Below, one piece after another: positions 1,037 through 18,550 of a DNA stretch of 64,000 nt (position 1 is its first letter; each line of letters begins with the position of its first letter). Made by a program: the position numbers and the translations under genes. Where the stretch lies: positions 192,001 through 256,000 of the forward strand of contig OZ223270.1 in NCBI GenBank assembly GCA_965140585.1, read 5' to 3'. Source of the stretch: Spirochaetia bacterium. GTDB taxonomy: Bacteria > Spirochaetota > Spirochaetia > UBA9216. Below the pieces are notes generated by a model. That model was not told the DNA's origin, ran no database searches, and saw only the letters and a program-made list of their open reading frames with translations.

Positions 1037-1594
1037 TTATTTTACCAGTGCGGATATCCCCTTGAAGTAGGGGCTTTTTGAGGTTCTGGTTAGTTCAAAA
1101 AGTACTGACTCATATACTGAAACCATCGCGCCCTCAAACTTGTATCGTTCTATTCCTGTATTATAATCCTGTTCCTTTCTGGAGGAAATACAGTCAACAA
1201 CAGCATTAACGTTATAACCTTCTGCACAGAGATCGGTAATTGTCTGAAGAACACAGACATGACCTTCGATTCCGCAGATGAGTACATTTTTCCTGCCTGT
1301 TTCCTTCAATTTTTCCATAAAAGCAGGGTCATCAGCACAGCTGAAAGTTCCTTTTTCAATATACGGGAGCTCTTCGGCAGAGCTGTAGCCGAGCGCCTCA
1401 ACAAGTTCGGGAACTGTTGGTCCAAGGCCCCTGGTGTACTGCTGGGTAACGAGCAGCGGAATCTCAAGATGACGAAGCCCCTTAATGAGGGTGGAAGTAT
1501 TTTTTATAAGCTCTTCCTTCTTCTGCATATGGGGGACAAGCCTGTCCTGAAAATCAATTATTACTCCAACTGTATCTTCTGCAAGTAATCTCAT
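1037..1594 (-). CDS. Isochorismatase-family (YcaC-related) cysteine hydrolase
   Basis: IIDFQ, TQQY.RGLG.T, K..FSC and GIEGHVCVLQT motifs. Confidence 0.9.
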   Translation of the reverse strand: MRLLAEDTVGVIIDFQDRLVPHMQKKEELIKNTSTLIKGLRHLEIPLLVTQQYTRGLGPTVPELVEALGYSSAEELPYIEKGTFSCADDPAFMEKLKETGRKNVLICGIEGHVCVLQTITDLCAEGYNVNAVVDCISSRKEQDYNTGIERYKFEGAMVSVYESVLFELTRTSKSPYFKGISALVK

Positions 1595-2652
1595 AATTCC
1601 TCCCTGTATTTGCGGTAAAGACCCCTGAACTGGTCATAGGACAGTGACAGCAGATCTGCCGCTTTCTTCTGGTTGTTTTTTCCTTCCGACAAGGCCCGCC
1701 GAAGGTACTCAACTTCTATTTCTTTTATATTATCCCGAAATCCTGCAAGAGGGGGAAGAGCCGAAACTGTCTTTTCAACAATCCCGGGACTGCGGGCAGT
1801 CTCGCTGCTTTCAGCCTCAAAGCCTGAATTCCCTCTATCATCAGAGGCGCCGTATTCGATCTCAGGCTTTTCATAGGGATTTTTGAAAGGATCAACATTT
1901 ATTTCGGCAATAAGCCCCGACTCACACTTGTAGACAGCACGCTCAACTACGTTTTTAAGCTCACGGATGTTTCCGGGCCAGGGATATTGATGCATTCTTT
2001 GAATTACTTCTTCCGAGAACTCAGGCATCCGGGCATGACCAAGCTCCGACGCCATTCTTGATGAAAAATGCCTGGCAAGAAGCATAATGTCATCTCTGCG
2101 CTCTCTTAAGGGGGGAAGAAAAAGGACCTCGAAAGACAGTCTGTCCAGGAGGTCCCTTTTGAACTTGTTCTCTTCGCACAAATTCGGCATGTCTTCATTG
2201 GTGGCGGCGACAATACGGACATCAACTTCGATAGTCCGTGAACTGCCGACACGTTCAAAACTGCCGTATTCGACTACTCTGAGTATCTTCTCTTGTACTT
2301 CTAGAGGGATCAGGCCTATCTCATCGAGAAACAGGGTTCCCCCGTCGGCCTCTTCAAAGCGGCCTTTTCGGGTTTTTCCTGCGCCGGTGTACGCTCCTGT
2401 TTCATGTCCAAAAAGTTCTGTTTCAATAAGCGTAGGCGGCAGTGCAGCACAGTTGAGTGTGACGAAAGGAGCCTCCCAGCGTCCGGAAAGGTAATGAAGC
2501 CTTGAGGCTGCTAATTCCTTTCCGGTTCCCCTTTCGCCGATTATCATGACCGATCGATTTATACCGGCGGCCCGACTGAGTTCTGCCTGAAATTCCAGAA
2601 ATACCGGAGATTCTCCCAGAGCTTCGCGTTCAACGAAATCTGAGAATTTCAT
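1591..2652 (-). CDS. pspF: Phage shock protein operon sigma54 activator PspF
   Basis: AAA+ enhancer-binding protein with no N-terminal sensor: GERGTGKE, GAYTGA, LFLDE, WPGNIRELKN, C-terminal HTH. 'LHYLSGRW' keeps the PspA-contacting Trp. Divergent from pspA. Start could be 2652 or 2670. Confidence 0.93.
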   Translation of the reverse strand: MKFSDFVEREALGESPVFLEFQAELSRAAGINRSVMIIGERGTGKELAASRLHYLSGRWEAPFVTLNCAALPPTLIETELFGHETGAYTGAGKTRKGRFEEADGGTLFLDEIGLIPLEVQEKILRVVEYGSFERVGSSRTIEVDVRIVAATNEDMPNLCEENKFKRDLLDRLSFEVLFLPPLRERRDDIMLLARHFSSRMASELGHARMPEFSEEVIQRMHQYPWPGNIRELKNVVERAVYKCESGLIAEINVDPFKNPYEKPEIEYGASDDRGNSGFEAESSETARSPGIVEKTVSALPPLAGFRDNIKEIEVEYLRRALSEGKNNQKKAADLLSLSYDQFRGLYRKYREEL

Positions 2653-2654
2653 GT

Positions 2655-2742
2655 AGGTACAATTTACCATGATATGGTTATTCTGACCAGTATTATTTTA
2701 TGAATTTGGTATATTTTACCATTTTATTGGTTTATTTCGCCA
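2655..2742. promoter_or_regulatory. Four palindromic TGGT-N7-(A/G)CCA sites, putative PspF upstream activator sequences
   Basis: AGGTacaatttACCA (2655), TGGTtattctgACCA (2675), TGGTatattttACCA (2707), TGGTttatttcGCCA (2728); two pairs spaced 20 and 21 bp. Confidence 0.7.
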
Positions 2743-2891
2743 AATTCCTCCCTGGGGGGGTAACAGAACCAGCCCCGGAAGCTGTTTAAATAGGGACGGA
2801 AAGACTGAAAATGAGCTATAAAAAGCCCAAACAAACAGTCATTGGATTAATTTTATTGAATTTTCAGAAGATTCCGGGCTAATTCCAAAAA

Positions 2892-2909
2892 TTGGCACAG
2901 CATCTGCAT
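2892..2909 (+). promoter_or_regulatory. sigma54 -24/-12 promoter of pspA
   Basis: TTGGCACAGCATCTGCAT, with GG at 2894-95, exactly 10 nt, then GC at 2906-07; upstream of the pspA RBS (GGAGGA). Confidence 0.9.
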
Positions 2910-2940
2910 ATATATGTACAAACAAACCATGGAGGATAAT

Positions 2941-3621
2941 ATGGGCGTTTTTACAAGATTCAAAGACATAGTTAACTCAAACATCAATTCAATGCTGGAC
3001 AGAGCGGAAGACCCTGAAAAAATGATCAACCTGATGATTAGAGAGATGGAAGATACACTAGTAGAACTCAAATCATCATGCGCAGCTACAATGGCAGACA
3101 AGGCCAAAATGGCCCGGGAAAAAGATGACTTCCAGGAAAAATGCGACCGCTGGAGTTCAAGGGCAAAACTTGCTGTAGAAAAAGGCCGTGATGATCTGGC
3201 CCGTGAAGCGCTTCTTGAGAAGAAATCGTGCGCAAACCAGCTCGAACTGCTTGAAAACGATCTTAAACAGTTTGATACTATTATTGACGAATGCAAGGGA
3301 AACATTACCCAGCTTGAAGAAAAACTGGAGACAGTAAAACAGAAAAGACGTATATTAATACAGCGAAGCATTCATGCCACAGAAAAGAAGAAAGCAAGAG
3401 AGACAATTAGAAACGCTTCAGGCGTTGATGCAACTATGCGTTTCGAAGAACTCGAAGGCCGGATTGAAAGAATGGAAGCTGATGCGGATATGGTTTTCAC
3501 CGGAGCAAAAAGCGGAACCAACGAAAATGAATTCCACAAGCTTGAAAATGAAACCGAAATCGAAGAAGAGCTTTCAAAACTTAAAAAGAGTATAAAGAAG
3601 AATGATGGGGCCAATAATTAG
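2941..3621 (+). CDS. pspA: Phage shock protein A
   Basis: MGVFTRFKDIVNSNINSMLDRAEDPEKMI..MIREMEDTLVE N-terminus, 'KGRDDLAREAL', coiled coil; RBS favours ATG 2941 over 2914. Confidence 0.95.
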   Translation: MGVFTRFKDIVNSNINSMLDRAEDPEKMINLMIREMEDTLVELKSSCAATMADKAKMAREKDDFQEKCDRWSSRAKLAVEKGRDDLAREALLEKKSCANQLELLENDLKQFDTIIDECKGNITQLEEKLETVKQKRRILIQRSIHATEKKKARETIRNASGVDATMRFEELEGRIERMEADADMVFTGAKSGTNENEFHKLENETEIEEELSKLKKSIKKNDGANN

Positions 3622-3847
3622 TTCAGGAATGATAATTTCACTTTTTGCTATCGCAGCACCCTTTGTATTCGTACTTGCGGTGATTGCGATAGTAACAGGT
3701 AAAAAGGAAAAATCCCGCCGCGGAGATAAAATGAGCGACGAGGATGCAAAGATGATGGATGAAATTTACAGGGGCCTTCGGGATTTAAATCGTAGAATCG
3801 ACAACCTGGAAACCCTGTATAACGATAAAAAACGGAAGGAGCGGTAA
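3602..3847 (+). CDS. pspB: PspB-like membrane protein
   Basis: One TM helix, then 'MSDEDAKMM...LNRRIDNLET'; sits between pspA and pspC. Confidence 0.75.
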   Translation: MMGPIISSGMIISLFAIAAPFVFVLAVIAIVTGKKEKSRRGDKMSDEDAKMMDEIYRGLRDLNRRIDNLETLYNDKKRKER

Positions 3848-3853
3848 TTGACT

Positions 3854-4231
3854 ATGACCTATACCGGCAGAAAACTATACAGATCCAGACACGGTGAAAT
3901 CCTCGGAGTCTGCAAGGGAATTGCTGAATGGAGAGATCTCCCTGTAAATATGGTAAGACTCCTTTTCATACTGATAGCAATAGCAAGCGCCGTAGTGCCC
4001 TGTCTTATAATATACCTGATAATGGGACTGGTTCTCCCCATGGAGCCCGGATACCGTTCGGGCAGACGAAGCGATGACGATTACAAGGATCGCGGAGGAA
4101 GACGACATTACGGTTTTGAAGATATTAAAAGCGAGTTTGACAACCTGAAACAGCGCGTAAATAAAATGGAAGACGATGCAACCTCAGATAAAGAGACAGA
4201 CTGGGATCGAAGATTTCATGATAAGGATTGA
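3854..4231 (+). CDS. pspC: PspC domain membrane protein
   Basis: 'KLYRS...ILGVCKGIAE...VRLLF...IIYLIMGLVLP' PspC signature plus C-terminal coiled coil. Confidence 0.9.
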   Translation: MTYTGRKLYRSRHGEILGVCKGIAEWRDLPVNMVRLLFILIAIASAVVPCLIIYLIMGLVLPMEPGYRSGRRSDDDYKDRGGRRHYGFEDIKSEFDNLKQRVNKMEDDATSDKETDWDRRFHDKD

Positions 4232-6228: not shown

Positions 6229-6254
6229 TATTTAGGTATTCTTATACCTAAATA
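6229..6254. promoter_or_regulatory. Perfect 11-bp inverted repeat, putative Rrf2 operator
   Basis: TATTTAGGTAT-tctt-ATACCTAAATA, ending about 20 bp upstream of the Rrf2 ATG. Confidence 0.75.
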
Positions 6255-6273
6255 ACAGTTTACAGGAGAATCT

Positions 6274-6711
6274 ATGAATCCGCTTATAAATATATCCGAG
6301 GGAGCATCACTGGCATTTCACAGCCTGGCCCTTATAGCAAGAGAGGCTCCGCAGAGACTGAACACCGGCTACATAGCAAAAAATCTGGGTGCATCCGAAG
6401 CCCATCTGGCAAAGGTTTTCCAGAGGCTTAGCAAGGCCGGGGTAGTATCCTCGGTCAGGGGTCCATCCGGCGGATTCATACTGTCAAAAGATCCCCGGGA
6501 AATCAGCTTTCTTAATATCTACGAGATAATGGAATCAAAAATAGATAATCAGGGCTGCCCGCTTGGAAGGTCGGAGTGCTCATTCAGCAGCTGCATCTTT
6601 ACGGCAAAAATGAGCTCAGTCTCACAGGAAATCTACAACATACTGGAAACTATAAACCTGGCTGAATTCAGCGGAAGCGAACGCGTAAGCAGGGGTACGG
6701 AGAACAAATGA
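6274..6711 (+). CDS. Rrf2-family transcriptional regulator, 3-Cys (probably Fe-S binding)
   Basis: 'HLAKVFQRL.KAG.V.SVRGPSGGF.L' winged HTH; C-x5-C-x4-C (CPLGRSECSFSSC). Confidence 0.92.
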   Translation: MNPLINISEGASLAFHSLALIAREAPQRLNTGYIAKNLGASEAHLAKVFQRLSKAGVVSSVRGPSGGFILSKDPREISFLNIYEIMESKIDNQGCPLGRSECSFSSCIFTAKMSSVSQEIYNILETINLAEFSGSERVSRGTENK

Positions 6712-7943
6712 ACTATTTCGAAGAAAACGACAAACTTTACAGCATAGTCGACAGATATCCGGAGACCATTCCGGTTTTTGTGAATAACGGATTTCCACAG
6801 ATGGATGACGAGGCTCAAAGAGAAAAATTCGCAAAAACCATATCACTCAAGCACGCGCTGATGCTGAAGCAGACAGATCTGCAGTCCTTCTCTGCCCTGC
6901 TGAATGAGGCAATCAAACGGAAAGCCGAAAGCGGAATTGACGGAATAAATACCGAAAAGGTAACAGAACCAGATATAAGACTGACAGGACTACTGCCCTG
7001 CCCAGTAAGGATTCCGCTGCTGGAACAGTTCAGCCGTTTTGCCGAAAGTTTCGAAAAAGATGCCGGACTTCAGATTGCCCATGAACTGAAAGCTGCTTCG
7101 ATGGGGCTGGACTGGGTTGAAAAAAATATAAGCGGTTTAAGCAGCCATAAAAACCTGCCCGACATCTTCATATCAGCCGGCTTCGATCTTTTCTTTGACA
7201 GAAATAAAATAGGCAGATACAAGGAGCAGGGAGTTTTCAGGGATTTAAGCGGATATGAAAAATACAACGAACTGTTTAACGGAATTGATCTGAAAGACCC
7301 CCGCGGGCACTATTCCATAATCAGTGCTGTACCGGCAGTATTTCTTGTAAACACAAATGAACTTGGAGATACCCCTGAACCGAAAAGCTGGAAAGACATC
7401 CTCAGCCCCGAATTTGAAAACAGGGTATCGATCCCTATCGGCGACTTCGATCTGTTCAACGCGATACTGATTAACATCCACCGAAATTACGGCGAAGAAG
7501 GCGTATTCAGACTGGGAAAGAGCCTTCTTGAATCAATGCACCCCTCACAGATGGTTAAAAGCAATACCAAAAAGATAAACAGACCTGCTGTAACGATAAT
7601 GCCGTTTTTCTTCACAAAGACCGTAAAAGAGGGAGGGCCGATGAAAGCGGTTTGGCCCGAGGATGGAGCCATATTAAGCCCGATCTTCATGCTTACCAAA
7701 GCCGCATCTGCGGAAAAGATTCAGCCGGTAGTTGATTTCTTTGCCTCAAAGGAAGTGGGGGAAACTCTGGCCCACAACGGGCTTTTCCCCAGTACGAGAG
7801 AGGATGTGGATAACCGGATAGATCATTCAAACACATTTATGTGGCCGGGATGGGACTACATCTATTCAAATGATATCGCAGAGCTGATCAGCCGCTGCGA
7901 AGAAGTATTCAATTCAGCTGTAGAAACAGCCGCAGGAGTATAA
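6708..7943 (+). CDS. ABC-type substrate-binding-fold protein with N-terminal DUF1858-like domain and no signal peptide
   Basis: 'LYSIVDRYPETIPVFVNNGF' (DUF1858-like); iron/polyamine SBP motifs 'PKSWKDIL.PEF' and 'VWPEDGA'; 'LLPCPVR'. Confidence 0.8.
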   Translation: MNYFEENDKLYSIVDRYPETIPVFVNNGFPQMDDEAQREKFAKTISLKHALMLKQTDLQSFSALLNEAIKRKAESGIDGINTEKVTEPDIRLTGLLPCPVRIPLLEQFSRFAESFEKDAGLQIAHELKAASMGLDWVEKNISGLSSHKNLPDIFISAGFDLFFDRNKIGRYKEQGVFRDLSGYEKYNELFNGIDLKDPRGHYSIISAVPAVFLVNTNELGDTPEPKSWKDILSPEFENRVSIPIGDFDLFNAILINIHRNYGEEGVFRLGKSLLESMHPSQMVKSNTKKINRPAVTIMPFFFTKTVKEGGPMKAVWPEDGAILSPIFMLTKAASAEKIQPVVDFFASKEVGETLAHNGLFPSTREDVDNRIDHSNTFMWPGWDYIYSNDIAELISRCEEVFNSAVETAAGV

Positions 7944-8654
7944 ATGAACCTGGTAACATTTTCAGGTCCGCCCTCATCGGGCAAGACCTCGGTAATACTT
8001 AAAACTATCGAATCACTTAAAAACAGAGAACTGAAAGTGGGGGTAGCCAAGTTCGACTGTCTCTATACGGATGACGACGAGCTCTACCGCAAGGCAGGCA
8101 TCCCCGTAAAAAAGGGACTCTCAGGCTCCCTCTGTCCTGACCACTACTTCGTCAGCAATATAGAAGAAATAACACAGTGGGGAGTCGAATCAGGCTTTGA
8201 TATACTTATAAGCGAATCAGCAGGCCTCTGCAACCGCTGTTCTCCCTATGTAAAGGAAGTGAAGGCTGTCTGTGTAATTGATAACCTCAGCGGAATAAAT
8301 ACACCCAAAAAGATCGGCCCCATGCTTAAGTCGGCGGATATCGTAATAATCACAAAGGGCGATATCGTCTCCCAGGCGGAAAGGGAAGTCTTTGCCTCAA
8401 GAGTTAACGCTGTTAACCCTTCGGCTGTAATAATGCACATCAACGGGCTGACAGGCCAGGGAAGCTTTGAGCTCAGTACACTGCTCTATGACCCGGAAAC
8501 AGCGCTCACCAGCCTTCAGGGAAAGGAGCTGAGATTCCCAATGCCCTCGGCAATGTGCTCCTACTGCCTGGGCGAAACCCGAATTGGAGAAAGCTACCAA
8601 ATGGGAAATGTACGTAAAATCAACCTTCAGGAGGATGCCGGCCATGGTGCATAA
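7944..8654 (+). CDS. HypB/UreG/CobW-like (G3E) metal-binding GTPase
   Basis: GPPSSGKT (G1), 'LCPDH', 'ESAGLCNRC', 'TKGD' (G4), C-terminal CSYC. Confidence 0.87.
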   Translation: MNLVTFSGPPSSGKTSVILKTIESLKNRELKVGVAKFDCLYTDDDELYRKAGIPVKKGLSGSLCPDHYFVSNIEEITQWGVESGFDILISESAGLCNRCSPYVKEVKAVCVIDNLSGINTPKKIGPMLKSADIVIITKGDIVSQAEREVFASRVNAVNPSAVIMHINGLTGQGSFELSTLLYDPETALTSLQGKELRFPMPSAMCSYCLGETRIGESYQMGNVRKINLQEDAGHGA

Positions 8655-9678
8655 AAAAGATATTGAAACCCTGACGGCGGCAAGGATCCTTGACGCCTAC
8701 CCCTTTGCAGAAACCTATTTTGACGACAACAACATAAGCCTGACCGGCCGGAAAAAGCGGACAATCGGGGAGATATTAAACAGCTTTGATGAAGCCGAAC
8801 GTGAAGACAGGGCAATCGACCCTGAAAGACTGTTGAACGGCCTTGCAGACTTTATAAACCAGATGCTTGAGTTTCTAGGCGAAAACGAAAAGGTCCAGTC
8901 GGTAACTATACTTCCCGGAACCGATAAATCGGGAAAATCCGAAGGATTTGAAGAGCTTGTTATCAAAACAAGTGAAATTGTATCAATTGTAGGCCCAACA
9001 GGTTCCGGAAAAAGCAGACTGCTCGGCGATATTGAATGGGTTGCCCAGGCCGATACACCGACATCAAGGCGCATTCTTATAAACGGAGAGGTCCCTGATA
9101 AAAGCTGGCGCTTTTCAACCTCAAAGAAGCTAGTGGCACAGCTGTCGCAGAACATGAATTTCGTCATGGACTTGAGCGTCCGCGAATTTGTGAGCATGCA
9201 CGCCGAAAGCCGCATGGCCGAAAACAGGGAAGAAATAACTGAAAAAATCATCGCCGAGGCAAACAGACTTGCTGGCGAGCAGTTCGGACCGGAAACCCCG
9301 GTTACAAGCCTCAGCGGCGGCCAGTCACGGGCACTTATGATTGCCGACACGGCAATCCTGAGCAAGTCACCGATCATCCTTATCGATGAGATCGAAAATG
9401 CCGGAATTGACCGCAAAAAGGCCCTCGAACTGCTTTTATCAGAAGAAAAAATCGTCCTGATGGCCACTCATGACCCGATTCTGGCGCTTATAGCCGACCG
9501 GCGGATCGTAATAAAAAACGGCGGGATTTCAAAAATTATTGAAACAACAGAAGAGGAGAAAACAATCCTCGGAGAGCTTGAAGAGCTCGACAGAACCTTC
9601 CTGTCCTACAGGACAAAACTCAGACAGGGAAACAGATTAACAGAAACCAAAGATTCAGAGGAGAAACGATATGCATGA
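8644..9678 (+). CDS. Stand-alone ABC ATPase with N-terminal DUF1858-like extension
   Basis: GPTGSGKS, LSGGQ, IILIDE, THD motifs; ATG 8644 follows a GGAGG RBS; N-terminus 'ARILDAYPFAETYF' resembles the SBP N-domain. Confidence 0.87.
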   Translation: MVHKKDIETLTAARILDAYPFAETYFDDNNISLTGRKKRTIGEILNSFDEAEREDRAIDPERLLNGLADFINQMLEFLGENEKVQSVTILPGTDKSGKSEGFEELVIKTSEIVSIVGPTGSGKSRLLGDIEWVAQADTPTSRRILINGEVPDKSWRFSTSKKLVAQLSQNMNFVMDLSVREFVSMHAESRMAENREEITEKIIAEANRLAGEQFGPETPVTSLSGGQSRALMIADTAILSKSPIILIDEIENAGIDRKKALELLLSEEKIVLMATHDPILALIADRRIVIKNGGISKIIETTEEEKTILGELEELDRTFLSYRTKLRQGNRLTETKDSEEKRYA

Positions 9679-9913
9679 CGGTTGTTCAGGTTCATTTGAT
9701 AATGCAAAAGCAGTAGTAGACAAGGTACGGATGATGGGATTTTCGGAACAGTTCCTACCGATTCCACTGCAGATTACCTGCGGCTCCTGCGGCAGTGAGT
9801 TCGGGATGGAAACCTTCGAGTTTAACTGCCCGGACTGCGGTTCAGTACACGCAGTTACCCCCTGCCACGCCTTCGACCCGGCTAACGTAATGGCAGCCGG
9901 GGCCGGATATTAG
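9671..9913 (+). CDS. Small Cys/His-rich HypA-like zinc-finger protein
   Basis: Starts MHDGC; CGSC-x11-CPDC; terminal PCH; GGAGA RBS; overlaps the ATPase stop. Confidence 0.8.
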   Translation: MHDGCSGSFDNAKAVVDKVRMMGFSEQFLPIPLQITCGSCGSEFGMETFEFNCPDCGSVHAVTPCHAFDPANVMAAGAGY

Positions 9914-9930
9914 AAAATCGTCCGCTTTTT

Positions 9931-9980
9931 ATAAACTCCAATAGTTCTAAAATGAAATTATTGGAGTTTTATTTTTTTTA
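9931..9980 (+). terminator. Intrinsic terminator closing the Rrf2 operon
   Basis: AAACTCCAATA...TATTGGAGTTT followed by a T-rich run. Confidence 0.7.
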
Positions 9981-11457: not shown

Positions 11458-12927
11458 ATGAAAAAAAGATTGTTTAAATTAATACCTATTCTGGTTCTTT
11501 TTTCCGCCGTCTGCGCGGAAGCCGCTGATGTTACCGTGATCCCGGTTAACGGAGAAATAGACCGTTCACTTACAGTATTTATCAGACGGAGCATTGAGAA
11601 GGCCGATAACAGCGGCGCCGATACAATCATATTTGAAATTGACACCTTCGGGGGACTTGTTGAATCGGCCCTTCAGATTGCAACACTGATCGGCAATGCA
11701 GAACAGCATACAATTGCCTATATTCCGGCGGCTCCTGAAACTACCGGTGTAAGCTGGTCGGCCGGAGCACTTATCAGCTTTGCCTGCAATGAAATTTATA
11801 TGGCGCCCGGAACATCCATAGGCGCAGCAGCGCCGGTCTATTCGAGTGCCGAAGGGATGAAAGCGGCCGAAGAGAAAACTGTCAGCGCCGTACGCGGGCA
11901 GATGGCCGCACTTGCTGAGAAAAACGGATACCCAAAGGCTGCAGCACTTGCAATGGTTGATGCCGACACTGAGCTTTCAGAGTACTTCATAAATGATATA
12001 CCGTCACTTGCATCCGCAGAAGAACTGCCTCAAATTCAAACTGAGGCAGAGGCAAACGGCAAAGCATTCAGGATAGGCAAAACGGTCTCTAAACCCGGAA
12101 AGCTGCTGACTCTGACTGCAAACGAGATGGCCTTTTACCGGATAAGCTCGGGAACAGCCGAAAGCAGAACAGAGCTGCTTCAGCTTGAAGGCATTGAAGC
12201 GGACAGTGTGGAAACAGCTGAATCAAGCTTACCCGACAGTCTGATAGCACTAATAACAGGAAGCGCCCTCACTACCCTTCTTGTAATAATAGGCCTGGCT
12301 GCTGTCTATATCGAAATTACCAGTCCGGGGTTCGGGATACCCGGAACCGTTGCGATAATTGTCTTTTCGATTCTATTTGCCTCAAACGCAATGCTTGGAA
12401 ATGTGGGCTCTCTTGAAATACTGCTGTTTCTTGCCGGAGTGGCACTGCTTGCAGTCGAAATATTTATAATTCCGGGCTTCGGGGCAGCAGGAATAAGCGG
12501 AATAGTGCTCATTGCAGTTGGACTTGTACTTGCAGGTCAGGATTTTGTCCTGCCGGAGGTTGACTGGCAGTATGACCTGTTTAAACAGAATATCATCAAC
12601 GTAGGAATAGGAACCCTGGGCTCGATAATTCTTGTCGGTGTAATATTCCTGCTGTTTCCAAGGATAGGTGTATTCAACCGGCTTGTGCTGAAAACAGAAG
12701 AAACACCGGCCTCCGGTTTTACAGTTCAGAAAGAGAATACCGACTCGGTTCTCATTGGAAAGACAGGAACAGCAGCAACTAATCTTCGTCCCGCCGGAAA
12801 AGCCGATATTAACGGAGAGCTTATCACAGTTGAATCTTCCGGTGAATATATTGAGAAGGGAACTGTAGTAACCATTACCGGAGTTAACGGAAACCGGATT
12901 ATTGCTTCAAAGGCGGACATGACATGA
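11458..12927 (+). CDS. nfeD: Long-form NfeD (YqeZ-like) membrane ClpP-class serine protease
   Basis: Signal peptide; 'IDTFGG', 'SAGALI', 'MAPGTSIGAA'; TM block 'EI.SPGFG.PG'; OB-fold tail 'T.LRPAGK'. Confidence 0.9.
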   Translation: MKKRLFKLIPILVLFSAVCAEAADVTVIPVNGEIDRSLTVFIRRSIEKADNSGADTIIFEIDTFGGLVESALQIATLIGNAEQHTIAYIPAAPETTGVSWSAGALISFACNEIYMAPGTSIGAAAPVYSSAEGMKAAEEKTVSAVRGQMAALAEKNGYPKAAALAMVDADTELSEYFINDIPSLASAEELPQIQTEAEANGKAFRIGKTVSKPGKLLTLTANEMAFYRISSGTAESRTELLQLEGIEADSVETAESSLPDSLIALITGSALTTLLVIIGLAAVYIEITSPGFGIPGTVAIIVFSILFASNAMLGNVGSLEILLFLAGVALLAVEIFIIPGFGAAGISGIVLIAVGLVLAGQDFVLPEVDWQYDLFKQNIINVGIGTLGSIILVGVIFLLFPRIGVFNRLVLKTEETPASGFTVQKENTDSVLIGKTGTAATNLRPAGKADINGELITVESSGEYIEKGTVVTITGVNGNRIIASKADMT

Positions 12928-13400
12928 TTAAAGCGGCAGCGCTGCTTGCGGCAGGAATTATATTTATAATTATTGAGTTTTTCATTCCGGCATTCGGATT
13001 GGTAGGCCTTGTAGGTGCGGGGACAGTTATTGCATCGATTGTAACCGCGTTTATGATAAGCAATACCATGGGTGCTGTTCTTATCATCATAGCTGCAATA
13101 ATGATTCCGCTGCTGATAGCTCTGTTCTTCAAGGTTTTTCCGCACACCTTTTTCGGCAAACGACTGATTCTTGGAAAAACATTTGGAAAGGAAGAAGGCT
13201 TTACAGCCGGAGCTGGAGATATGAGCAGCATTCTGGGGCAGTCAGGAACAGCTTTTACCGACCTCAGGCCGTCCGGGATGATAATTATTGAAAACAAGCG
13301 GATAAACGCCGTTTCCAACGGTGAATACATAGAAAAAGACAGTAAAATTATTGTTAAAAAAGTAGACGGCAACAGGATTGTCGTAAGCAAGGAGGATTAA
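12924..13400 (+). CDS. Short-form NfeD (TM helices plus OB fold)
   Basis: 'IEFFIPAFG', 'TDLRPSG', 'VDGNRIVV'. Confidence 0.88.
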   Translation: MIKAAALLAAGIIFIIIEFFIPAFGLVGLVGAGTVIASIVTAFMISNTMGAVLIIIAAIMIPLLIALFFKVFPHTFFGKRLILGKTFGKEEGFTAGAGDMSSILGQSGTAFTDLRPSGMIIIENKRINAVSNGEYIEKDSKIIVKKVDGNRIVVSKED

Positions 13401-14387
13401 ATGGTTTTGGTTTATATCGTAGCAGGGGTTATAGCCCTCATAATTATTGCACTGTTTATCAAATTTTTCGGATTGTGGTTCAGAGCCCTTCTTTCAGGTG
13501 CACATATCTCACTCGGACGCCTGATAGGAATGTGGATACGACAGGTCAAATCAAAGCAGATTGTTGACAGCCGGATTATGCTTACAAAAGCCGGAATTGC
13601 AACAGATTCTGATCTTCTTGAAACACACTACCTGGCAGGCGGTGACGTTATAAGAGTAAGCAAGGCACTTATTGCCGCTAACAAGGCCAATATCGTACTT
13701 GATTTTCAGCAGGCTGCAGCCATCGATCTGGCAGGACGCGATGTACTTGATGCAGTAAAAACCAGCGTAAACCCCAAAGTAATAGACTGCCCCAATCCCG
13801 ACAAGGGGCGGCAGACAATAGATGCTGTGGCCAAGGACGGAATACAGCTGAGGGCAAAGGCCAGAGTTACCGTAAGGGCCAATATTGAAAGGCTTGTGGG
13901 AGGAGCCACCGAGGAAACAATTATAGCCAGAGTCGGTGAAGGTATTGTAACAACAATAGGAAGTGCGGAAACATACAAGGATGTTATTGAGAATCCTGAC
14001 AAGATTTCAAAGACCGTACTTGCAAAGGGTCTGGATGCAGGTACAGCATTCGAGATACTTTCTATTGACATTGCAGATGTGGATGTCGGCGACAATATCG
14101 GAGCAAAACTTCAGGCCGATCAGGCGGAAGCAGACAAACGCCGTTTCCAGGCCGTTGCGGAACAGCGCAGAGCTGCAGCAATTGCAAGAGAGCAGGAAAT
14201 GTCAGCCCTGGTTCAGGAAAACAAGGCACAGGTTGTTCTGGCCGAAGCCGAGATTCCAAAAGCTATTGCTGCTGCATTCAGGGAAGGACATCTGGGCATC
14301 ATGGATTATTATCGGCTCAGAAACATTCAGGCTGATACAGACATGAGGCAGAGCATAAGCGATGACGGAAAGAAGTCTGACAAGTAA
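13401..14387 (+). CDS. floA: Flotillin-like protein FloA (YqfA)
   Basis: 'LETHYLAGG', '[11 protein letters not shown]', '[19 protein letters not shown]', '[21 protein letters not shown]'. Confidence 0.95.
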
Positions 14388-17101: not shown

Positions 17102-18550
17102 TTATTCGGTAGTGATTGCGATGTTCTTGGTAACAAGATATTCGCTGACAGCTTCAAGTGATAGCTCTTTTCCAAAGCCGGACTGCTTGAATCCGCCGTG
17201 AGGAGCCTCGGAAGCTACAATAAGATGATTATTAACCCATACAGTTCCGAACTCCAGCTTATGTGAAACCCTCATCGCACGGGCAACATCCTTTGTCCAC
17301 ACTGATGCAGCCAACCCGTATACAACATCATTTCCAAGCCTGACAGCCTCGGCTTCATCCTTGAAAGTATTAATTGTGAGAACAGGACCGAAAACTTCCT
17401 CCTGGATAATCTCTGAATCCTGCTTTGCATCTGCAATAACTGTCGGTGCATAGAAGTATCCGCTTCCGAGTTCCGGCATTTTCCGGCCGCCAATAACTAC
17501 ACGGGCACCTGCAGATTTTGCACGCTCTACAAAGCCTGAAACACGCTCAAGCTGCTTTGAGCTTATAAGCGGGCCGACTTCTGTTTCAGGATTAAGCGGA
17601 TCACCGATTTTCACAGCCTCTGCTGCGGCAGTGACAGCCTCCAGCAGCTGCTTATACCGGCTTTCATGAACGTAGATTCTGGTTGCCGCGGTACAATCCT
17701 GACCGGAGTTAAAGGTTCCGCCGAGAACTGCGGTTTCGGCAACCCTTGCGATATCGGCATCTTCAAAAACAACAACAGGAGCTTTTCCGCCCAGCTCCAT
17801 ATGAGTCCGCTTCATCGTTCCGGATGCAAGCTCCATAATTCTCCGTCCGGTTCCGGTTGATCCGGTAAGGCTGACAAGGCGTACTGAAGGGTGTGTTGCC
17901 AGGACTTCCGCCTTTGCGCCGCGCCCGGTTACTATATTAAGAACACCATCGGGAAGGCCTGCCTCCTTTGCAATCTCTCCGAGACGAAGAGTGGACAGGG
18001 GTGTATTTGAAGCAGGCTTCATTATTATGGTGCATCCTGCCGCGAGGGCCGGGCCGATTTTCCAGGCGGCCATCTGAAATGGGTAGTTCCAGGGAGTTAT
18101 CTGGCCGACAACTCCGACAGGCTCATGCCTGAATACATGCGTCATCCCCTTAAGATACTGTCCGGCGGCGATACCGTGCGTATCTCTGGCAAGGGTTGCA
18201 TAATACCTGAAGTTGTCGATTGAATCATGAATATCAACTGCCTTGCATTGATATTCCAGCGGTTTGCCGGTATTTTCTGTTTCGAGTCCGGCAATTTCAT
18301 CGGAGTATTTTTCGATAAGATCTGCCATTTTCCAGATTATTCCGGAACGTTCGGCCGGTGTGCTCTCGCTCCAGGGCCCTTCATAGAAGGCTCTTTCCGC
18401 GGCGGCAACAGCTGATTCAAAATCGGAGGTTACAGCATCGGGGACGCTCTGAAATTTTTGACCAGTGGCAGGGTTGACAACATCAATCCTGTCCTTTCCT
18501 CTGGAGGGCACCCAGCCTCCATTAATCCACAGTTCATAACTGTCTTTCAT
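17102..18550 (-). CDS. NAD-dependent aldehyde dehydrogenase (aminobutyraldehyde/betaine-aldehyde DH-like)
   Basis: PWNYP, TGSTGTG, MELGGKAP, FNSGQDCTA (catalytic Cys), EEVFGP, PHGGFKQSGFG. Confidence 0.93.
   Translation of the reverse strand: MKDSYELWINGGWVPSRGKDRIDVVNPATGQKFQSVPDAVTSDFESAVAAAERAFYEGPWSESTPAERSGIIWKMADLIEKYSDEIAGLETENTGKPLEYQCKAVDIHDSIDNFRYYATLARDTHGIAAGQYLKGMTHVFRHEPVGVVGQITPWNYPFQMAAWKIGPALAAGCTIIMKPASNTPLSTLRLGEIAKEAGLPDGVLNIVTGRGAKAEVLATHPSVRLVSLTGSTGTGRRIMELASGTMKRTHMELGGKAPVVVFEDADIARVAETAVLGGTFNSGQDCTAATRIYVHESRYKQLLEAVTAAAEAVKIGDPLNPETEVGPLISSKQLERVSGFVERAKSAGARVVIGGRKMPELGSGYFYAPTVIADAKQDSEIIQEEVFGPVLTINTFKDEAEAVRLGNDVVYGLAASVWTKDVARAMRVSHKLEFGTVWVNNHLIVASEAPHGGFKQSGFGKELSLEAVSEYLVTKNIAITTE

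Follow-up and report, generated by a model that had tools for sequence, protein, structure and literature searches.

What can an ATP-binding cassette (ABC) operon do that encodes a binding protein and an ATPase and no permease? The question is raised by a five-gene operon of a Spirochaetia bacterium (contig OZ223270.1, positions 192,001 to 256,000; this stretch of 64,000 nt is referred to as the window), which encodes an Rrf2-family regulator, a substrate-binding-like protein (SBP), a G3E-class GTPase, an ABC ATPase and a zinc-ribbon protein. The operon is real and widely conserved, and in the window it encodes a cytoplasmic four-protein module and its own Rrf2. [quoted passage not shown]

The initial annotation of this locus described five coupled genes between a palindrome and a terminator, and this arrangement was confirmed (Table 1): the genes run from 6274 to 9913 and all junctions overlap or abut. 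The rrf2/SBP junction is an ATGA overlap, the SBP and GTPase genes abut (TAA-ATG), and the GTPase/ATPase and ATPase/zinc-ribbon overlaps are 11 and 8 nt. The open reading frame (ORF) of the ATPase opens at 8584, and its start was placed at 8644 because the orthologues align from about residue 21 and an AGGAGG (8629-8634) stands 9 nt before this ATG. The terminator stem (9933-9968) gave a folding energy of -15.4 kcal/mol versus a shuffle mean of -6.7 (z = -4.0); it was missed by a simple terminator scan, which listed sites elsewhere only. None of the five proteins was assigned to a named equivalog in NCBIfam, and no RNA family was found by Rfam in the operon region of the window.

Table 1. Features of the operon in the window
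Feature	Coordinates	Strand	Evidence
Operator palindrome (predicted)	6229..6254	.	inverted-repeat search
Rrf2-family regulator, 145 aa	6274..6711	+	Pfam Rrf2 2e-25
DUF1858 + SBP_bac_6 protein, 411 aa	6708..7943	+	Pfam
G3E-class GTPase, 236 aa	7944..8654	+	cobW/HypB/UreG domain 2.6e-12
Soluble ABC ATPase, 344 aa	8644..9678	+	ABC_tran 2.9e-15
Zinc-ribbon protein, 80 aa	9671..9913	+	Cys pattern; unnamed family
Intrinsic terminator, 14-15 bp stem then U-rich tail	9933..9980	+	folding energy

Relatives of the operon were collected from other genomes. A tblastn search of a plasmid collection led to the SBP-GTPase-ATPase triad in a chromosome-sized record of Fusobacterium vincentii, and the alignment of the window and F. 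vincentii GTPases (73% identical) was used to build the pattern for a contig scan. The scan gave at least 599 pattern matches, and a relative is encoded in at least 475 of these; the 80 best were retrieved for examination. The comparative counts given here rest on 81 loci, and the window is included in the counts of near-full-length genes, which were 72 for the SBP, 81 for the GTPase, 77 for the ATPase, 71 for the zinc ribbon and 41 for rrf2. The order SBP-GTPase-ATPase(-zinc ribbon) was kept wherever the contig allowed. The GTPases of the 80 fetched loci were 79-87% identical to that of the window across phylum labels, of which there were at least eight, including Cloacimonadota, Spirochaetota, Fermentibacterota, Bacillota, Bacteroidota and Fusobacteriota. 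The F. vincentii record (L001/L082; PLSDB NZ_CP084075.1) is a 2.1-Mb circular 'plasmid' with one annotated feature, evidently a chromosome.

The sole broadly recurring neighbour of the module was a gene of about 550 aa of the Prismane family (Pfam 1e-180). Three representatives scored 840-864 bits with the hydroxylamine reductase (hybrid cluster protein) model, whose cut-off is 367. This gene, hcp, lay within 7 kb in 29 of the 81 loci, downstream in 27 of them with a median gap of 115 bp; of the 64 loci whose downstream sequence extends to 1.8 kb or more, 28 had it. Sorted by phylum label, the loci with hcp nearby were 18/20 of Cloacimonadota, 6/8 of Bacillota, 3/24 of Spirochaetota, 0/9 of Fermentibacterota and 0/10 of Bacteroidota. 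At least seven changes were needed to place hcp adjacency on the module tree, and it is therefore not one inherited accident.

The link to hcp was also seen in the operators. In the consulted part of Rodionov et al. (PMC1274295), GTAAC-N4-GTTAC is given as the consensus of HcpR2, a CRP/FNR regulator of hcp, and the predicted HcpR2 regulon of F. nucleatum, T. denticola and Bacteroides consists of hcp only. Of 77 loci, 18 have the same box 56-113 nt 5' of the SBP gene, and none of these 18 has rrf2. They include all 10 Marinifilaceae, F. vincentii, a Leptotrichia locus, Tissierellaceae and Vallitalea. It also stands before hcp in five loci, and further 5' of rrf2 in four spirochaete loci. In F. 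vincentii, 1.1 Mb separate the SBP gene from hcp, and each of the two is preceded, at a distance of about 90-100 nt, by the identical 14-mer GTAACATTTGTTAC (GTACATTTGTTAC-type). Genes for a CRP/FNR regulator (10 loci) and a flavodiiron protein (seven loci) were found near the module. These and further sporadic neighbours (a cupin, nitroreductase, OsmC, C_GCAxxG, flavodoxin, NifS/NifU and a Nitro_FeMo-Co domain protein) fit the nitrosative/redox theme. From neighbourhood and shared operators it therefore follows that the module belongs to the nitrosative-stress/Hcp regulon, and we consider this membership and the association with Hcp highly probable. The connection to redox/NO stress and to hybrid-cluster-protein loci, proposed initially, was thereby shown. 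The target supposed at that time, an 'unlinked metalloenzyme', was too vague, and the evidence points specifically to Hcp and the nitrosative-stress regulon.

In the window, the operon has an operator candidate of another type. The palindrome consists of the arms TATTTAGGTAT (6229-6239) and ATACCTAAATA (6244-6254), 11 nt each and 100% complementary, with a 4-nt spacer. It occurs once in the window, where shuffles expect 0.05, and its core, AGGTAT-N4-RTACCT, begins 41 nt 5' of the rrf2 start. With two mismatches at most, 40 of 41 loci (the window among them) have this core at a distance of 25-90 nt 5' of rrf2, where the background is 0.024 per 150 nt, and several loci have a second Rrf2 box before the next gene. 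The palindrome is predicted to be a conserved operator, to which the operon's own Rrf2 would bind. The Rrf2 domain was clear (Pfam 89.9 bits, cut-off 30; TIGR00738 89 bits, cut-off 73.3), and the three Cys initially noted in the regulator were borne out as near-invariant across 41 sequences (C95 41/41, C102 40/41, C107 41/41). The protein fell below the cut-offs of the IscR, NsrR, RirA, CymR and SufR (SUF regulator) models, with 31.4 bits versus 182 for NsrR, 54.4 versus 275 and 53.1 versus 207.55 for IscR, and 62.6 versus 110.65 for the SUF regulator model. Its operator is unlike the NsrR consensus as quoted in the consulted part of PMC1274295. The window Rrf2 belongs to a separate clade with its own operator, and it is predicted to be an Fe-S-containing, redox/NO-responsive repressor of the operon. 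Apart from four loci with another or no phylum label, only those labelled Cloacimonadota or Spirochaetota carry the gene, and two changes suffice for its presence on the concatenated-core tree.

In 20 loci (e.g. L002, L008 and L017, at about 8400-8760), a Cupin_2 gene of 112-131 aa is the direct 5' neighbour of SBP. Eighteen of the 20 cupin genes lie between rrf2 and SBP, with their own Rrf2 box in front, as seen in six aligned loci. The cupin is a lineage-specific sixth operon member of Cloacimonadota and a few others and is absent from the window. In six Cloacimonadota loci no Rfam family was found, and the 'gap' of about 400 nt that follows rrf2 there holds the cupin gene.

The initial annotation had further claimed that the SBP has no signal peptide or lipobox, that none of the five proteins has an evident transmembrane (TM) segment and that there is no permease. 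The first two points were borne out by a Kyte-Doolittle scan, a crude one, in which no TM segment, signal-like N-terminus or lipobox was found in any of the five proteins and six window controls (lipoprotein, binding-protein, permease, NfeD) were positive. Among the SBP orthologues, 1 of 72 ORFs reached the hydrophobicity threshold of 1.6, and 71 of 72 had no hydrophobic segment at this threshold. The third point also held: the window operon has no permease, the two other ABC systems of the window being complete and separate, and when a conserved neighbouring permease was looked for, no permease family recurred beside the core in the 81 loci. Multi-TM neighbours were sporadic (chromate transporter, SLAC1/TehA, MatE, BacA). 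As cognate permease we considered and rejected a DrrA-like ATPase with an ABC-2 permease near Marinifilaceae loci, a NitT/TauT transporter on the opposite strand (L022, L027, L052) and a FetAB-like pair in Fermentibacterota, each of which has its own ATPase and is lineage-specific.

The surroundings of these transporters were also recorded. In Marinifilaceae (L062-L081), a block 2.5-7 kb 5' of the core and on the opposite strand holds genes for a flavodiiron protein, a CRP/FNR regulator, the ABC-2 permease, the DrrA-like ATPase and a CHU_C/T9SS protein; among these, the CRP/FNR gene may encode the HcpR that acts on the box before the SBP gene. In Fermentibacterota (L021, L029, L030, L042), a recurrent HAD hydrolase gene, followed by genes for a short ABC ATPase and for a membrane protein of the UPF0014 (FetB-like) type, lies 0.3-2.2 kb 3' of the core, and the arrangement resembles the FetAB iron exporter. 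Several Fermentibacterota loci (e.g. L021, L023, L034, L041, L042) have a methyltransferase gene directly 5' of the SBP gene, and these carry neither rrf2 nor an HcpR2 box. In F. vincentii, genes for DUF6162, two ZnuA-type binding proteins and an ABC ATPase are found 3' of the module.

What the module might do was approached through its parts. The SBP has a DUF1858 domain at residues 6-61 (46.2 bits, cut-off 32.2; 4.9e-12) and an SBP_bac_6 domain at residues 149-388 (258.7 bits; 6.6e-77). Its AlphaFold2 (AF2) model, built from 71 sequences, had a predicted local distance difference test score (pLDDT) of 86.2. Foldseek gave at least 500 matches in PDB. The leading ones were P5PA, the FbpA proteins of C. 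jejuni and H. influenzae, AfuA and FutA (top entries 6wce, 1y4t, 4r73), with E values of about 1e-13, target TM-scores of 0.62-0.69 and 12-17% identity, and PotD was also among the matches. In the model, a class II binding-protein fold like that of FbpA, AfuA and P5PA follows the DUF1858 domain. The PCP motif pointed out initially is present and invariant across orthologues: Cys98 (GLLPCPV) was found in 72/72 and is located where the helix that follows strand 1 begins. Asp, Trp, Phe and Pro are prominent among the other invariant positions.

The ATPase is a complete ABC enzyme without Cys (ABC_tran 57.5 bits, cut-off 25), in which Walker A GPTGSGKS, LSGGQ, LIDEIE and ATHD are invariant in 77 sequences. 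Its nearest structures by sequence were MacB/LolD/MJ0796 and EcfA-type nucleotide-binding domains, at 38-48 bits. The N-terminal 85 or so residues form a helical domain in the AF2 model, with pLDDT above 85 for residues 1-80. In Foldseek, the top matches of this domain were 2k5e and 2k53 (probabilities 0.99 and 0.89, E 0.2-0.5, target TM-score 0.66), and all others had probabilities of 0.1 or less. Residues 4-66 of the SBP matched 2fi0, at E 5.5e-5 with the profile and at E 0.023 with the single sequence. In the consulted part of the COMPASS paper (PMC2703893), 2k5e and 2k53 are the closest homologues of 2fi0 and have the SP0561/2fi0 fold in common. An hhalign comparison of the ATPase and SBP N-domains was in register with E values of 1.5e-4 and 6e-4, but with probabilities of only 52% and 28%. 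The ATPase N-domain had no Pfam match, chance-level matches only when its profile was compared with PDB, and no usable match in the Atlas search. The initial statement that SBP and ATPase both start with a DUF1858-like domain was thus verified by Pfam for the SBP and, for the ATPase, has tentative support at the fold level only.

A role of DUF1858 in NO biology is supported by the literature. In the portions of the sources considered here, the 2fi0 fold has profile similarity to COG2846 'NO signaling' (PMC2703893), the DUF1858 protein bsl7085 is 29-fold NnrR-dependent and among the most NnrR-dependent genes of B. diazoefficiens (PMC6710368), Thermus DrpB has a DUF1858 domain (PMC6282519), and DUF1858 is equated with the ScdA N-domain (PMC8638851).

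The GTPase matched PF02492 (cobW) with 47.2 bits versus a cut-off of 20.7, and its motifs GPPSSGKT, ESAG and TKGD are invariant across orthologues. It was below the equivalog cut-offs of both hypB (51.3 versus 121.2 bits) and ureG (21.2 versus 204.2 bits). The best PDB relatives were archaeal HypB (2hf8, 2wsm), then UreG. Eight Cys/His residues, C39, C64, H67, C96, C99, C110, C205 and C208, were each found in 81/81. C64 aligns with the Cys of the HypB Cys-His motif, and C96/C99 lie just past ExxG, at the second metal Cys of HypB. The CPDH, CNRC and CSYC motifs, recognised at the outset, are present and invariant or nearly so across orthologues, and the description as a HypB/UreG-like G3E GTPase was upheld by the invariant Cys/His at HypB-equivalent positions. 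The protein is classed by these scores as a G3E protein distinct from the HypB and UreG equivalogs.

The zinc-ribbon protein starts with MHDGC, in which H2 and C5 are found in 71/71, G4 is invariant and D3 is in the consensus. The ribbon cysteines C37, C40, C53 and C56 are each present in 71/71, and C65 is invariant too. Both motifs of HypA, a Met-His-acidic N-terminus for metal and a four-Cys zinc site, are thus present. The name 'HypA-like' given to the protein initially is not supported as family membership: the Pfam HypA score was 22.7 bits versus a cut-off of 28.9, with only the zinc ribbon matched (profile positions 66-96/112), and no HypA was among 14 PDB matches of the family profile at E <= 10. 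The nearest Atlas clusters were unnamed 80-aa 'hypothetical protein' families without a Pfam family.

These parts can be joined in a tentative scheme. The Rrf2, with a probable Fe-S cluster on its three Cys, would repress the operon from the palindrome, and damage of this cluster by NO or oxidants would release it. The FbpA-like domain might bind Fe itself or something derived from it, an Fe-nitrosyl or a piece of an Fe-S cluster, in a cleft with Cys98 at its entrance. A dimer of the ABC ATPase could be tethered to it through the DUF1858/ScdA_N-like domains, and ATP would open or close the SBP. The Cys-rich G3E GTPase and the MHDGC zinc-ribbon protein may gate a GTP-dependent hand-over of metal to the target, which would be the Hcp hybrid cluster or NO-damaged Fe-S proteins. 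We put the chance that the module serves metal or cluster delivery or repair for Hcp or NO-damaged proteins at about even; the specific division of labour among the four proteins is held more tentatively than that. A complex prediction with the ATPase (A3) and the SBP (A2) scored 0.15 and 0.12 versus a mark of 0.32, was run without controls and gives no verdict either way.

Other explanations of the same parts have to be weighed. An ordinary ABC importer, with its permease encoded elsewhere and the SBP exported by an unrecognised route, would account for an operon that encodes both an SBP_bac_6 domain and a complete ABC ATPase, and a ZnuA-type transporter does stand downstream in Fusobacterium. 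Against it stand the 71 SBP orthologues without hydrophobic segment and the soluble DUF1858 domain with which the window SBP starts. No permease family recurs beside the core in the 81 loci, the multi-TM neighbours being sporadic and unrelated or parts of complete transporters of their own; the GTPase and the zinc-ribbon protein are fixed members, and the ATPase has a putative DUF1858-like domain of its own. We regard an importer as highly improbable. Insertion of nickel or another metal by a HypA/HypB-type pair into an unlinked nickel enzyme, such as hydrogenase, urease or carbon monoxide dehydrogenase (CODH), the NO link being incidental, draws on the GTPase, which is closest to HypB and then UreG, and on the four-Cys ribbon of the small protein. 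The CPDH of the GTPase resembles the Cys-Pro-His of UreG, and the M-H-D start of the zinc-ribbon protein is like the M-H-E nickel site of HypA. Yet no hydrogenase, urease, CODH or methyl-coenzyme M reductase (MCR) family was found among the flanking-cluster representatives scanned from the 81 loci, the HypB, UreG and HypA models all stayed below their cut-offs, and the family profile found no HypA structure. The regulators are of the HcpR2 and Rrf2 types, and no NikR-type gene was among the flanking families scanned. Nickel insertion is quite unlikely.

A different view of the SBP is that it is an enzyme or a sensor of small molecules, for example a (de)nitrosylase that works through Cys98, or a protein that binds a cationic metabolite or one derived from nitrogen oxides; the NTPases would regulate or recycle the SBP. 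Binding-protein folds with a catalytic Cys exist, thiaminase I being an example. A single invariant Cys where the helix behind strand 1 begins, a conserved surface with many Asp, Trp and Phe and without a Tyr pair, and matches to PotD, AfuA and P5PA, which bind organic ligands, all agree with this view. It leaves the Cys-rich G3E GTPase and the Cys/His zinc ribbon, hallmarks of metal handling, unexplained, and ferric-binding proteins dominate the top structural matches; we judge it unlikely. The most specific form of the Hcp reading is a new membrane-free ABC class, in which a cytoplasmic FbpA-like SBP is driven by a soluble ATPase via DUF1858 and, with a fifth-type Cys-rich G3E GTPase and the MHDGC chaperone, builds or repairs the [4Fe-2S-2O] cluster of Hcp or re-metallates NO-damaged Fe-S proteins. 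In this full form the proposal is rather doubtful.

Several observations weigh against a module that works with Hcp on metal centres. Metal binding, the complex and an effect on Hcp are predictions. The iron site of FbpA consists of Tyr-Tyr plus His/Glu ligands, and a conserved Tyr pair was not visible among the invariant SBP residues in 72 sequences; the Asp/Trp/Phe-rich conservation would suit an active site or a cationic organic ligand just as well. Some lineages can dispense with the zinc-ribbon protein or the ATPase N-domain: three Fusobacteriota and two Halanaerobiales loci have no zinc-ribbon gene, and in F. vincentii the ATPase is without this domain. The fetched flanks of 52 of the 81 loci contain no hcp. 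The window itself has no hcp anywhere, and a scan of 50 neighbouring ORFs gave no match to hydrogenase, urease or CODH, in line with the initial remark that no target enzyme is encoded there. No HcpR2 box was found near the window operon, where the Rrf2 operator stands alone. The Hcp link of the window is therefore one by orthology. E. coli makes active Hcp without such genes, so the module is not a universal Hcp maturase. The loci, moreover, are mostly contigs of metagenome-assembled genomes (MAGs), and their taxonomy is that of the submitters' labels.

No description of the module was found in the full-text literature searched; Supplementary Table S1 of PMC1274295, on candidate HcpR sites, may list some of its genes. 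The NitT/TauT system of the Ni-CODH neighbourhood, in the part of PMC6344411 consulted, is a different one that contains a permease, and the consulted part of the C. difficile hcpR paper (PMC12915319) names no such genes. Each part of the module comes from a known superfamily; the literature searched describes neither the combination nor the cytoplasmic SBP, the distinct G3E branch, the operator or the extended HcpR2 regulon. We place the module with systems for NTPase-driven handling of metallocentres, and there is a fair chance that it represents a new class of membrane-free, binding-protein-dependent ABC system.

Hcp is among the most widespread NO/hydroxylamine defence enzymes of anaerobes, including gut and oral bacteria, and we know of no accessory factor for its unusual cluster. 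An hcp-co-regulated module of metal-handling parts is a concrete candidate for this role and, where organisms rely on Hcp, also for a repair function like that of RIC. If this were true, anaerobes would have, for the first time, an accessory machinery known to be dedicated to their Hcp/NO-detoxification pathway, and the module would extend two paradigms, with binding-protein-dependent ABC ATPases that are wholly cytoplasmic and a further branch of G3E metallochaperones. The predicted Rrf2 operator and the extended HcpR2 regulon are directly testable, and Labilibaculum, Marinifilum, Ancylomarina and Fusobacterium are cultured hosts.

The genes that flank the operon in the window are unrelated to it: a CvfB-like gene on the opposite strand upstream, and a lipoprotein gene and then NfeD/FloA downstream. 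Directly after the lipoprotein gene lies an operon of a long, membrane NfeD, a short NfeD and the flotillin FloA (11458-14387, +). In a phage-shock-type cluster at 1591-4231, the gene of a sigma-54 activator (1591-2670, -) is divergent from those of PspA/IM30 (2914-3621, +) and of a PspC-domain protein (3848-4231, +). A full-length Moco/Tuco riboswitch (RF01055; 18541-18666, -; 64.8 bits, cut-off 36) stands directly 5' of an NAD-type aldehyde dehydrogenase ORF (17102-18550, -), overlapping its predicted start by about 10 nt; this enzyme is an unusual target for control by a Moco/Tuco riboswitch. Among the collected loci, two labels conflict with the module tree and the common flanking genes: 'Varibaculum timonense' (L059, Actinomycetota) falls with Tissierellaceae, and a 'Ferrimonas' MAG (L040) falls inside the spirochaete clade. 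Mis-binning, mislabelling or gene transfer could be the cause.

The module was finally compared with known systems. With HypA/HypB and UreE/UreG it shares the G3E motifs GxxxxGKT, ExxG and TKxD and the Cys/His at the interface metal site of HypB, as well as a small partner with a Met-His-acidic N-terminus and a four-Cys zinc ribbon. The window GTPase has the extra invariant C39, C99 and C110 and a C-terminal CSYC, and the zinc-ribbon protein, with 80 aa, lacks most of the nickel domain of HypA. Moreover, there is no nickel enzyme near the module, and its fixed partners, the SBP-like protein and the ABC ATPase, have no Hyp/Ure counterpart. A putative resemblance is that to SufC in SufBC2D and MCR component A2, likewise ABC ATPases with full motifs, no membrane partner and a metallocentre context. 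Unlike these, the module has no SufB/SufD-like scaffold; the presumed partner of its ATPase has a binding-protein fold, and the ATPase itself has a putative DUF1858-like N-domain. FbpA, FutA, AfuA and P5PA have the fold and the Pfam family SBP_bac_6 in common with the module SBP, which differs from them in its 12-17% identity, its DUF1858 domain and invariant Cys, and in having no signal peptide, no cognate permease and no visible Tyr-Tyr site.

A functional analogy may exist with RIC/YtfE/ScdA, which combines an ScdA_N domain with a di-iron hemerythrin domain and acts alongside Hcp in the NsrR regulon of enterobacteria. There too, a small helical domain of the SP0561/DUF1858 type is fused to a domain of an iron-binding type, and co-regulation with hcp is by NO-responsive regulators, one of them of the Rrf2 family. 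The homology of DUF1858 and ScdA_N rests on statements in the consulted parts of PMC8638851 and PMC2703893. The iron-type domain of the module is FbpA-like and not a hemerythrin, and two NTPases are obligatory. The module would thus be a functional parallel to the enterobacterial pairing of RIC/YtfE with Hcp, assembled from different parts.

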